The notes beneath the pieces were generated by a model that worked only from the letters and a program-made list of their open reading frames with translations, was not told the origin of the DNA and did not search any database. DNA of 27,516 nt from a virus (taxonomy: Duplodnaviria; Caudoviricetes). The position numbers and the translations under genes are program-made. Below, piece after piece: positions 18,294-20,785 of the stretch; the first letter of the stretch is position 1, and every line of letters starts with the position of its first letter. The stretch spans positions 1 to 27,516 of IMG/VR virus record IMGVR_UViG_3300034147_000008; one strand, written 5' to 3'.

Positions 18294-19028
18294 TCATGCA
18301 GGGATCAATGCTAAAGTGATCCAAGCATTGACTGTGATCGCTGCATTCTGATCGACAGTTGTGTTTCCTGTTGCGCCAGCAGATACTTTGCCCCCGTCAA
18401 CAATACCTATGCCTGAGCCGTTACCAGTAGCTGTTCCACCGTCAGCCCGTTCGGTAATCGACGCCAAATTGGCATTCGCCCAGTTTGTGTATCTGGCGGC
18501 AGCATTGTCCCAATCATCAGTGAGAAACGTGTAGATTAGACGGTTTGGGCCTGTTGTTGTCACACCACCGATAGTGAAAGTCGTTGGGCCTGTATTATCG
18601 GTACCTGAGTTTGAATCGTCTATAGGAGATCCTGAGGCAATACAACCTCTAGACCACACAGCAGCCGCGATTAAATGGTTGCCACTAGCGCATCCGACGG
18701 TCGGATTACCTTGTGACCCGTTATGCCGAGACCACCATAAAGTAATACGAACAGCCCCACCACCTCCAGCAGTTCCTATACCAATAGGAGAATCAGTAGG
18801 AAGTTCGGTATATGTTCCACCGTTGGCATTAGTAATTGTTGCTGCCTGGTTCGCTGTGAAAGCAGCAACCAGAACAATATCGCCAGCAGCGACAGCGCCC
18901 CCAGCTGCTGGCACATCGATTGGAATTACGGCAGATGTCGTACCAATGGCAGCCGATGATCCAACATAGTTGGGAAGAACGCTGGCTGTCTCTTCGACAA
19001 AGGCCGAAGCGATGATGCCAACGGTCAT
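18294..19028 (-). CDS. Putative fibre tip / adhesin (Gly/Ala/Thr-rich beta protein)
   Basis: Start at MTVGIIAS (ATGA overlap with the upstream gene). AAGDIVLVAAF and C-terminal AWITLALIPA; composition typical of virion receptor-binding proteins. Confidence 0.6.
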   Translation of the reverse strand: MTVGIIASAFVEETASVLPNYVGSSAAIGTTSAVIPIDVPAAGGAVAAGDIVLVAAFTANQAATITNANGGTYTELPTDSPIGIGTAGGGGAVRITLWWSRHNGSQGNPTVGCASGNHLIAAAVWSRGCIASGSPIDDSNSGTDNTGPTTFTIGGVTTTGPNRLIYTFLTDDWDNAAARYTNWANANLASITERADGGTATGNGSGIGIVDGGKVSAGATGNTTVDQNAAITVNAWITLALIPA

Positions 19029-19429
19029 GGTGTCTCCAAATCTCCGACGAGCACCCAAGTGTCCGTCGCCAACTTTATTAGTGTCGCTGCTGAGTATTGA
19101 GCTCTGAACAGCTTCGACGGGGCGGCGTTAACAGTGACACCACCAGTCTGTGTTACGGTAACTTGTCCAGCTCCGATCTGAACGAGGTCAATGTGTGTTC
19201 CTACTGGAAAAGCAACTGACGAGTTGATTGGAACGGTCAGCGTGATAGCTGAGGCGTTGCTGAGAGTGACAAGTTTGGAATCGTCGGTGAGGACAAACGT
19301 GTATGACGTACCTGTTTGGGCATTGATCGTCTGCGCTTTGTCGACCTTCAGAGCAATCGCTGCCACCAAAGCCTTATAGTCCGTCCCAATTGCTGTAATT
19401 AAATCTGATAAGCGGGACTGCAGGCTCAT
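19025..19429 (-). CDS. Fibre adaptor protein (MSLQ.RLSDLI N-helix + NAQTGTSYT...WVLVGDL beta domain)
   Basis: The beta domain INAQTGTSYTFVLTD...AFPVGT...GAGQVT...RAQYSAATLIK...WVLVGDL is a recurrent phage fibre C-terminal module. ATGA-coupled on both sides. Confidence 0.7.
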   Translation of the reverse strand: MSLQSRLSDLITAIGTDYKALVAAIALKVDKAQTINAQTGTSYTFVLTDDSKLVTLSNASAITLTVPINSSVAFPVGTHIDLVQIGAGQVTVTQTGGVTVNAAPSKLFRAQYSAATLIKLATDTWVLVGDLETP

Positions 19430-20097
19430 GCCTTAGCCGTGGTGTACAGGGAAACTAGGTTGGTCTCAGGATCACCGAGTTCCGTCGTAGAATATACAGC
19501 AAGCGTAGCTCTCTGAGCCGCAGCATCAGCGTCATCAACCAACGCACGACCAGCCGACGTAAACGTGCCCAACGCCCACGTGCCAGCACCAGTCGAATAT
19601 GGAACCTTGTCTGCTGCAGAAGTCAACGCCGCAATAGCAGTCAAGTCAGTGTCGAGCGGTTGCTTTCCAGCAAGAGCTGTTGTAACTGTGCCGGCGAAAT
19701 CTGCATCATCACCAAGCGCTGCAGACAATTCGTTCAAAGTGTCCAAAGCGCCAGGAGCAGAATCAAGGATCTCTGCCACAATAGCTGTGCGTTCTTGACG
19801 AACTCCAGCAGCCGTGACAGCTCTTGTAGAATCAGTTCCTGTAGCGACCTCTGCAAGCGTTGCAAGCTCGAGGATACCTTTTACCGTCTCACTGGCGTCT
19901 ACGGCTGTCCAGCCGCCTCCTGCGGCGCTCTCAGCGACTTCTAGGACCTCGTTGATGGCGTCCACGAGGTTCGTCTTGTCTGTTGTATCGAGACCCGTAA
20001 GGTCTCCGCCTGCTGAACCGGTGATCCAGGTTCGGAATTGTTTGTAGTCAGTGCCAATCGCTGTGATTAGATCACTGAGTCGTACTTGTAAAGACAT
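19426..20097 (-). CDS. Fibre shaft protein
   Basis: Classic tail-fibre motifs: DKTNLVDAINEV, ASETVKGILELATLAEVATGTD, APGALDTLNELSAALGDDADFA...KQPLDTDLTAIAAL, GRALVDDADAAAQRATL. Confidence 0.8.
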   Translation of the reverse strand: MSLQVRLSDLITAIGTDYKQFRTWITGSAGGDLTGLDTTDKTNLVDAINEVLEVAESAAGGGWTAVDASETVKGILELATLAEVATGTDSTRAVTAAGVRQERTAIVAEILDSAPGALDTLNELSAALGDDADFAGTVTTALAGKQPLDTDLTAIAALTSAADKVPYSTGAGTWALGTFTSAGRALVDDADAAAQRATLAVYSTTELGDPETNLVSLYTTAKA

Positions 20098-20100
20098 GGG

Positions 20101-20379
20101 TTATACCTTCGCATTCTCATAGAGCAGAGTTAAGGACGGGCCGTCATCATAGACGGGATGAGGAGTTACAGATTCGACATGGGCTTCAAGTTCCATCTCA
20201 CCAGAGCCCTCACCGGCAAGATATGGAAGATCGTTCCACCGATCAGCACCGTTACCAATCTTAACCTTTCCAGTGTTTAGCTCGAAACCTGGTTCTCCAT
20301 CCGCAAGCAGTGGATTTGTGTCAATCCACTCTGTCGAAGAGCCTCTTCGAAACTTGAACGTAAATTCCATTCCTGCCAT
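20101..20379 (-). CDS. Mtd_N-domain (major tropism determinant N-terminal / hyaluronidase N-like) small fibre protein
   Basis: FRRGSSTEWIDTNPLLADGEPGFELNTGKVKIGNGADRWNDLPY is the Mtd_N signature. Start moved to MAGMEF, just after the upstream stop. Confidence 0.8.
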   Translation of the reverse strand: MAGMEFTFKFRRGSSTEWIDTNPLLADGEPGFELNTGKVKIGNGADRWNDLPYLAGEGSGEMELEAHVESVTPHPVYDDGPSLTLLYENAKV

Positions 20380-20380
20380 G

Positions 20381-20785
20381 TCACGGATCACCCCCGTCGA
20401 GAACCGAAAGTAGAGGCAACTCCTCTGCAGGAACACCTTGCTCTGTCAACAGAACTTCTCTGAAAGCGTTCAATCTCCATTCGTGCTCCAAGATTTGCTG
20501 ATTCATGGCCTCGATCAAATATGACGTTGACGGTGGATCAAACATCATACGAACCTTCAAGAACACATACGTCTTGACCATGTTCAGTTGATTCTCAGGA
20601 GCAAGAAAGTCGTCCCAAGTAGGCTCACTGTCGGTGATGTAAAACCCGTCTTCTGGACCCACACCAAGCTGACTCAAAGTTGAGAATGCTGAATTAAGGT
20701 GGGTGATGATGTCTAGATCAAACGGGGTGTAGTCGGAAGACAGCCCCAGGATCTTCTTTGTGCTATCCAAAATGCTGTCAGCCAT
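20381..20785 (-). CDS. Head-tail connector (neck/adaptor)-like protein with C-terminal LDGGDP extension
   Basis: SILDSTKKILG...FDLDIITHLNSAFSTLSQLGVGP...YVFLKVRMMFDPP...EWRLN, a helical pattern resembling gp6/gp15-type adaptors; GGAGG RBS. Confidence 0.7.
   Translation of the reverse strand: MADSILDSTKKILGLSSDYTPFDLDIITHLNSAFSTLSQLGVGPEDGFYITDSEPTWDDFLAPENQLNMVKTYVFLKVRMMFDPPSTSYLIEAMNQQILEHEWRLNAFREVLLTEQGVPAEELPLLSVLDGGDP

Follow-up and report, generated by a model that had tools for sequence, protein, structure and literature searches.

In the accessible part of its description, the neck fibre of cyanophage A-1(L) is given as gp82-gp81(x14)-gp80 (PMC10966104), with trimers joined head to tail, anchored on a neck protein and ending in a distinct tip. 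Its anchor, middle and tip genes are adjacent and lie away from the tail module, polymerisation of the middle subunit was measured, and the joint was modelled with N-terminal beta-hairpins. The long tail fibre of T4 is made of several products in gene order, gp34-gp35-gp36-gp37, and is anchored on the baseplate, as described in the available portions of PMC12143355. The hubs of crAss001 bear multi-protein fibres according to the sections at hand of PMC10172136. Bxb1 gp4 (PDB 9D93), named a tail collar fibre, is encoded in a gene cluster upstream of the terminase.

We examined a block of five genes, A to E, in a window of 27,516 nucleotides, which is the whole stretch of viral DNA analysed and a 27.5-kb fragment that is 46% complete. 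The terminase of the window is 80–84% identical to those of Streptomyces phages and, as judged from its sequence, the source phage is a siphophage akin to 1706, ReqiPepy6 and Streptomyces RosaAsantewaa. The five genes are all on the minus strand (Table 1, in window ORF coordinates). The block sits upstream of the terminase, as does the Bxb1 cluster, and away from the tail genes, as the A-1(L) genes do. The genes are tightly coupled, as the first-pass annotation of this DNA had reported: A and B are separated by 1 nt and B and C by 3 nt, while C and D, and D and E, each overlap by 4 nt. The same annotation had noted that the protein ends pair in gene order, and each motif was located where it had been placed. 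This pairing of the ends of neighbouring genes is confirmed to be real and far beyond chance.

We propose, with a probability of about 0.72, that the five products follow one another, in the order of their genes, along a single segmented fibre of trimers, which is likely attached to the head-tail adaptor ring. In this assembly, A would form the adaptor ring, whose DGG tails would grip a trimer of B by its Mtd_N cap. At its C-terminal end, the B trimer would close its three plug helices around the three helices with which the C chains begin, and the C trimer would hold the N-terminal helices of D in the same way through its own plug helices. The terminal beta-domain of D would probably seat the N-terminal strand of E, and the E tip would keep the particle near the host surface or matrix. 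Anchoring on the neck, presence in the virion and polymerisation of C are the parts of this proposal that we infer. In its proposed working the block resembles T4 and A-1(L), whose fibres are likewise segmented, and by sequence it belongs to neither. As in A-1(L), the genes for anchor, middle segment and tip are adjacent, and the trimers are proposed to be joined head to tail from a neck anchor to a distinct tip. Unlike in A-1(L), the joint uses helices and the stacking of the middle subunit is only proposed; the neck anchor proposed here differs from the baseplate anchor of the T4 fibre. Single-sequence BLASTP comparison with gp80-82 of A-1(L), taken as three KU234533 genes picked by their order and by the 241 aa of gp82, gave no likeness (best E 2.1), remote homology at the profile or fold level being possible.

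Table 1. Features of the five-gene block, with positions in the window.
Feature	Position	Strand	Basis
A: head-tail adaptor-like, DGG-tagged C-terminal extension	20381..20785	-	PF24829, model pLDDT 90, structural matches
DGG tag of A (VLDGGD-P), predicted partner of the Mtd_N of B	20381..20401	-	Co-occurrence among relatives of A
B: converter, Mtd_N cap and Y-type plug	20101..20379	-	PF18454 (E 1e-12); plug profile
C: shaft; socket helix, tail-fibre repeats, Y-type plug	19426..20097	-	PHROG tail-fibre matches, repeats
C tail, residues 178-223, plug side of the modelled joint	19429..19566	-	Interface residues 202-223
D head, residues 1-33, socket helix	19331..19429	-	Interface residues 1-19 and 22
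D: socket helix and C-terminal beta-sandwich	19025..19429	-	Model pLDDT 97.6, fold matches
E: probable tip, beta-rich, no named family	18294..19028	-	Atlas look-alikes, four relatives

The proposal rests foremost on the helical joint. C (223 aa) begins with MSLQVRLSDLITAIGTDYK and ends with LVSLYTTAKA, and D (134 aa) begins with MSLQSRLSDLITAIGTDYK and ends with WVLVGDLETP. We define the plug as a C-terminal Y-x-x-A-K and the socket as an N-terminal helix MSLxxRL…IGxD, and each half was searched for alone with patterns composed after the first data were seen. The plug-only pattern gave 105 matches, 104 with a socket gene within 60 nt. With these junctions classed by eye, a socket gene directly followed the plug in 103 of 104 viral loci besides the window's own, and all were of the D17 type; D17 was invariant in 88 rows. 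With the socket-only pattern, 111 viral loci yielded 116 matches, and almost all real genes matched had a plug-ending gene upstream. In new metagenome and genome scans for the socket alone, with a dialect-neutral socket pattern and a loose definition of the upstream plug, 115 of 124 family-like sockets had a plug upstream; the first 22 residues of 28 of the 124 sockets were identical to those of earlier ones. Among low-scoring matches to the socket pattern, an upstream plug was present in just 2 of 48. These reciprocal scans bear out the earlier statement that genes ending in LxxLYxxAK precede MSLxxRL genes. No description of the joint was found by topic in mostly open-access main texts on fibres, necks and adaptors, and sequence searches of the PDB with profiles of the plug, the socket, the D domain and A gave no match at E under 0.01.

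The joint occurs in two dialects. In the first, the Y-x-x-A-K plug goes with a socket carrying A13 and D17; in the second, an F-x-x-G/A-L plug goes with R13 and E17. When the F plug was searched for alone and its junctions were classed by eye, an R13/E17 socket came next at 79 of 85 distinct junctions, the other 6 being without a typical socket. Among viral and phage loci, 296 distinct junctions fit both a plug and a socket pattern, a count that leaves out junctions failing either one: 187 were Y-D, 109 were F-RE and none was mixed. In the new scans, plug and socket were of the same dialect at 112 of 115 junctions and mixed at 3, and 3 further junctions had an F plug and an E17 socket without R13. 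The two ends of C follow the same rule, since head and tail matched in dialect in all 90 proteins having both ends, as well as in 117 of 117 close relatives of C with both ends, one of which had switched at both. On a tree of the middle of C, built on 141 columns from 78 rows, the distribution of the F dialect takes 5 changes, of which at least 3 are forced, and a single clade for it was rejected (AU p 1.5e-4); recombination of the middle of C could imitate such repeated switches. In the sequences compared, plug and socket residues are thus shown to co-vary across phages.

A complex of three C tails (residues 178–223) and three D heads (residues 1–33) was modelled with custom alignments alongside 3 controls. 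The ipSAE of the cognate pair was 0.92 in three runs and that of the best control was 0.32, in line with the preference for cognate over non-cognate partners that had been expected for this pair. Among solved complexes 116 of 157 reach the score mark, as do 2 of 215 mismatched pairs, and these counts are a rough guide for a 3+3 job of this kind. The runs had at least 98% of contacts in common, and the pLDDT of the partners was at least 94. In the model, Y218 of C contacts residues 10, 11, 13, 14 and 15 of D; since Y218 touches A13, the pair that co-varies between the dialects, Y/F with A13/R13, is in predicted contact. K222 and D17 both lie within the modelled interface, yet outside the 25 listed pairs. 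Contact between C and D is therefore predicted with high confidence and the model supports binding. The plug-to-helix joint proposed by the first-pass annotation is upheld by the reciprocal scans, by the co-variation of its residues and by the high-scoring model.

A, a protein of 134 aa ending in VLDGGDP, matches Pfam PF24829 (Phage_connect_2) with 128 bits against a cut-off of 24.3. Its family, with 237 phage records (Arthrobacter, Gordonia, Streptomyces, Lactococcus and others), carries the annotation of 1706 gp06 as a structural protein. The top 31 structural rows (VIA) for the model of A are all phage portal, neck or tail entries with Z of 5.5–8.8, among them HK97 gp6 (Z 6.5) and P22 gp4 (Z 5.8). 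These matches are middling one by one, with a best Z of 8.8 and mostly helical, and Foldseek returned no match with E under 0.49. The model supports the view that A folds like a head-tail adaptor of the HK97 gp6 or P22 gp4 type, and its earlier description as connector-like agrees with both the PF24829 match and the ranking of helical adaptor folds. B, which has 92 aa from its ATG and ends in LTLLYENAKV, matches PF18454 (Mtd_N) with 48 bits (cut-off 26.3). It had been described as almost only an Mtd_N domain; the domain is present and spans only residues 9–45, the rest being linker and plug. B begins with the same Mtd_N cap, above the curated cut-off, as Mtd of Bordetella phage BPP-1. The C-terminal receptor-binding part of Mtd is missing from B, which has the plug at its end and would convert a DGG/Mtd_N joint to a helical joint.

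The DGG tail and the Mtd_N domain go together as neighbours. DGG-tailed relatives of A stood directly before an Mtd_N-like gene in 19 of 19 cases, 18 of which came from loci chosen on other motifs, the A-selected set having given 1 of 31. Of the A relatives without the tail, 34 of 35 had no Mtd_N neighbour. Tail and neighbour were thus concordant in 53 of 54 distinct relatives, the exception (locus L218) having an Mtd_N gene and an A relative without the tail. Starting from genes with an N-terminal Mtd_N, the preceding gene had a DGG-like end in 74 of 109 cases, compared with 34 of 1029 background gene ends, which leaves 35 of 109 Mtd_N genes without such an end upstream. These counts agree with the pairing of DGG with Mtd_N put forward earlier. 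At the level of genes the pairing is observed, and we infer from it that the DGG tails of A may hold the Mtd_N cap. The DGG ending is unique to A among the 20 window genes listed; since the window is only 46% complete, some other DGG-bearing anchor could lie beyond its ends. In Microbacterium phage Musetta, the same chain lies behind a DGG-ending gene located after the capsid gene and before the annotated stopper, a position from which this gene is presumably an adaptor.

A different site of attachment has to be weighed against these observations. An Mtd_N converter was scored in 16 of 99 C-type loci, and many of the others lie behind a small beta-sandwich gene of the phrog_1084 or Pfam LtfC type. 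With such anchors elsewhere, the B-C-D cassette is portable, and a neck site is not required there. The 83 loci without a scored converter, the incompleteness of the genome and the annotation of the C of phiM7 as capsid-related would all be compatible with a B-C-D-E chain that is real but hung on the tail collar, the tail tube or the capsid, the DGG tail being incidental or having another partner. For the block studied here we regard such an arrangement as unlikely, since in the A family the DGG tail and the Mtd_N neighbour are present or absent as a pair and the second gene in an adaptor position, that of Musetta, shows the DGG/Mtd_N pairing too. The adaptor ring is thus kept as the likely anchor of the proposed fibre.

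The shaft protein C has 1578 relatives. Its internal repeats also occur in the collar fibre gp4 of Bxb1 (E 1e-6) and in T4 gp12 (E 8e-5), the repeat of the latter being found in a gp34-type subunit as well; gp4 of Bxb1 lacks both plug and socket. We found no locus that passes from B to a tip with no C-type segment between them, nor any that carries two C genes, which speaks against the idea that C might be skipped. Of 9 apparent B-to-tip loci, 7 were C-type plugs misclassed by the pattern, and the other two (L259 and L273) encode the socket and the plug of C in separate genes. Two of the 3 loci that seemed to hold a second C gene had B plugs, and the third was a false pattern match. Separate socket types for B and for C were also considered and rejected, the sockets of C and D being alike at interface positions. 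Both helical joints of the block are of one dialect and so are not mutually orthogonal. Of the three orthogonal pairs envisaged by the first-pass annotation, the helical and the DGG/Mtd_N pairings are supported, the orthogonality of the two helical joints is not, and the pairing of a beta-domain with GIIAS is weak. Single-use joints would allow mixed loci, and the absence of mixed loci fits stacking of C on C; shared ancestry or recombination fits it likewise. We tentatively suggest, at less than even odds, that C self-polymerises into a stack with a single B cap at the neck and a single D-E tip at its other end, that the dialects act as mutually exclusive locks, and that a 20-residue socket suffices for display.

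The beta-domain of D has the fold of T4 gp9, TSP4 XD1 and the Pa223 knob (Z 9.3–14.7), with Z of 14.7 to residues 196–294 of the Pa223 capsid spike and of 9.8 to residues 78–182 of TSP4. In the accessible part of PMC8825819, XD1 is a spacer in TSP4 and gp9, and docking of CBA120 TSP4 is via XD2/XD3, whereas D has the XD1/gp9-type fold. The Pa223 fold is a terminal knob whose partner is not described in the available portion of bioRxiv 10.1101/2025.06.11.659172. In 121 of 123 matches, no more than 3 residues separate the D-type domain from the stop. Of 87 genes following it, 44 have a loose G-x-x-small-small start, compared with 53 of 1025 in the background, and 13 have a GIIAS-like start, both patterns having been set after the data were seen; a joint between the beta-domain of D and GIIAS is plausible. 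E (244 aa) begins with MTVGIIAS and had no match in Pfam or PHROG. It has four relatives, Atlas look-alikes of 0.97 in viral clusters and TM of 0.7–0.8 to domains of viral and bacterial proteins. An identification with Bxb1 gp5 was rejected for lack of similarity (E 4.9). The prediction of swappable tips fared well, as 139 distinct socket genes of 49–849 aa were found downstream of C. From this diversity and from the pectate-lyase-like tip of Musetta, E is likely an exchangeable adhesin tip.

Chaperone genes often sit after phage fibre genes, and some of the downstream socket genes encode only 49–80 aa. Both features could be accommodated if the helix pair were a split folding or trimerisation unit and the product of the next gene were an assembly chaperone that leaves the virion. 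We consider this quite improbable, as many socket carriers are enzymes or fibres of considerable length (849 aa at most; the one in Musetta is pectate-lyase-like), C is both fibre and socket carrier, and several short socket genes end in a further joint tag, either DGG or Phage_tail_C.

The location of the cluster before the terminase and apart from the tail genes would also suit a fibre outside the virion, either free or on the infected cell. We give this very little weight, since the A family is annotated as a virion protein, C has tail-fibre repeats and the A-1(L) neck-fibre genes are also apart from the structural genes in the accessible part of PMC10966104. Virion proteomics or microscopy of any carrier was not found in the literature covered (main texts, mostly open access), and the phiM12 homologue is unmentioned in the accessible part of PMC4621102. 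Finally, the C and D sockets are closer within a locus than between loci (11.8 versus 10.0 of 19), but the notion that the repeated starts are DNA homology patches for recombination of tip genes, or recent duplications, with no protein pairing, is barely credible, since the C and D heads are identical at 18 of 19 residues and at only 35 of 57 bases, 13 of the 18 common residues using different codons, which rules out a recent duplication and indicates that the likeness is held at the protein level, and since it leaves the plug co-variation and the modelled contact unexplained.

The segmented trimeric fibre joined in gene order is therefore our preferred reading, and the family to which it would apply is a wide one. 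It is present in phages of Microbacterium, Gordonia, Pseudomonas and Sinorhizobium and on contigs of Pseudomonadota, Bacteroidota, Chloroflexota and Myxococcota genomes, is without a Pfam model and is mostly labelled hypothetical. For its members, the pairing would provide a readable rule of assembly, by which the last 15 and the first 20 residues of neighbouring genes predict binding partners, and which covers how small unannotated phage genes become appendages. Carriers have been cultured on laboratory hosts that are harmless, so direct testing is feasible, and the two natural dialects offer a built-in swap-and-rescue control as well as candidate orthogonal trimer connectors. If C stacks, whiskers of variable length would be made out of a 223-residue gene. 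If the locks are exclusive, they would stop fibre mixing between co-infecting phages, and display on the virion would be open to any protein gaining the 20-residue socket helix.

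Joint types other than that between the plug (a C-terminal motif) and the socket (the N-terminal helix of the next gene's product) were also suggested by several of the loci with motif matches. Short adaptors of 78–109 aa, such as those at loci L001 and L003, carry the socket at the N-terminus and a different motif at the C-terminus, and this pairing of ends suggests that they convert one joint type to another. In Pumpernickel gp219, the C-terminal motif is Pfam Phage_tail_C, as at the end of Bxb1 gp4. At loci L259 and L273, the socket and plug of the shaft lie on two separate genes; the new ends created by this split resemble each other between the two loci and are candidates for an additional joint type. 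Two successive plug-socket joints were observed in the variant chain of L207 and L275, which is located downstream of a holin-like gene and has a shortened socket.

Features at the loci with motif matches and in the window
Feature	Locus	Coordinates	Strand
Short adaptor	L001	5673-6002	
Short adaptor	L003	5533-5769	
Split shaft	L259	1398-3051	minus
Split shaft	L273	1474-3051	minus
Variant chain	L207	2599-3675	
Variant chain	L275		
Major tail protein, phrog_2645 match, second gene	window	10437-9619	minus
Major tail protein, phrog_2645 match, first gene	window	11672-11019	minus
Prohead protease + major capsid domains, 670 aa	window	14329-12317	minus
DUF7211 protein, second	window	15898-15584	minus
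DUF7211 protein, first	window	18279-17656	minus
Collagen-repeat protein, 800 aa, strand-rich start	window	25288-22886	minus
phrog_1084 gene (family match), 106 aa	window	25605-25285	minus
2'-5' RNA ligase-like phosphoesterase	window	26309-25866	minus
Gene weakly matching head fibre phrog_6994 (E 2.5e-5), 71 aa	window	26575-26360	minus

In the window, two genes match the major tail protein family, and a single gene combines the prohead protease and major capsid domains. The terminase is bracketed by DUF7211 proteins, one on either side; relatives contain many DUF7211 copies. The phosphoesterase gene sits amid structural genes, and similar genes were found downstream of the fibre cluster in Tanis and at loci L008-L010.

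The window also contains a phrog_1084 gene with the collagen-repeat gene immediately downstream. In phages SM1 and phiM7, the phrog_1084 family is represented by the gene ahead of the plug/socket cassette, the recurring set of helical joint genes. We propose that the phrog_1084 and collagen-repeat pair probably constitutes a second fibre with its own separate anchor.
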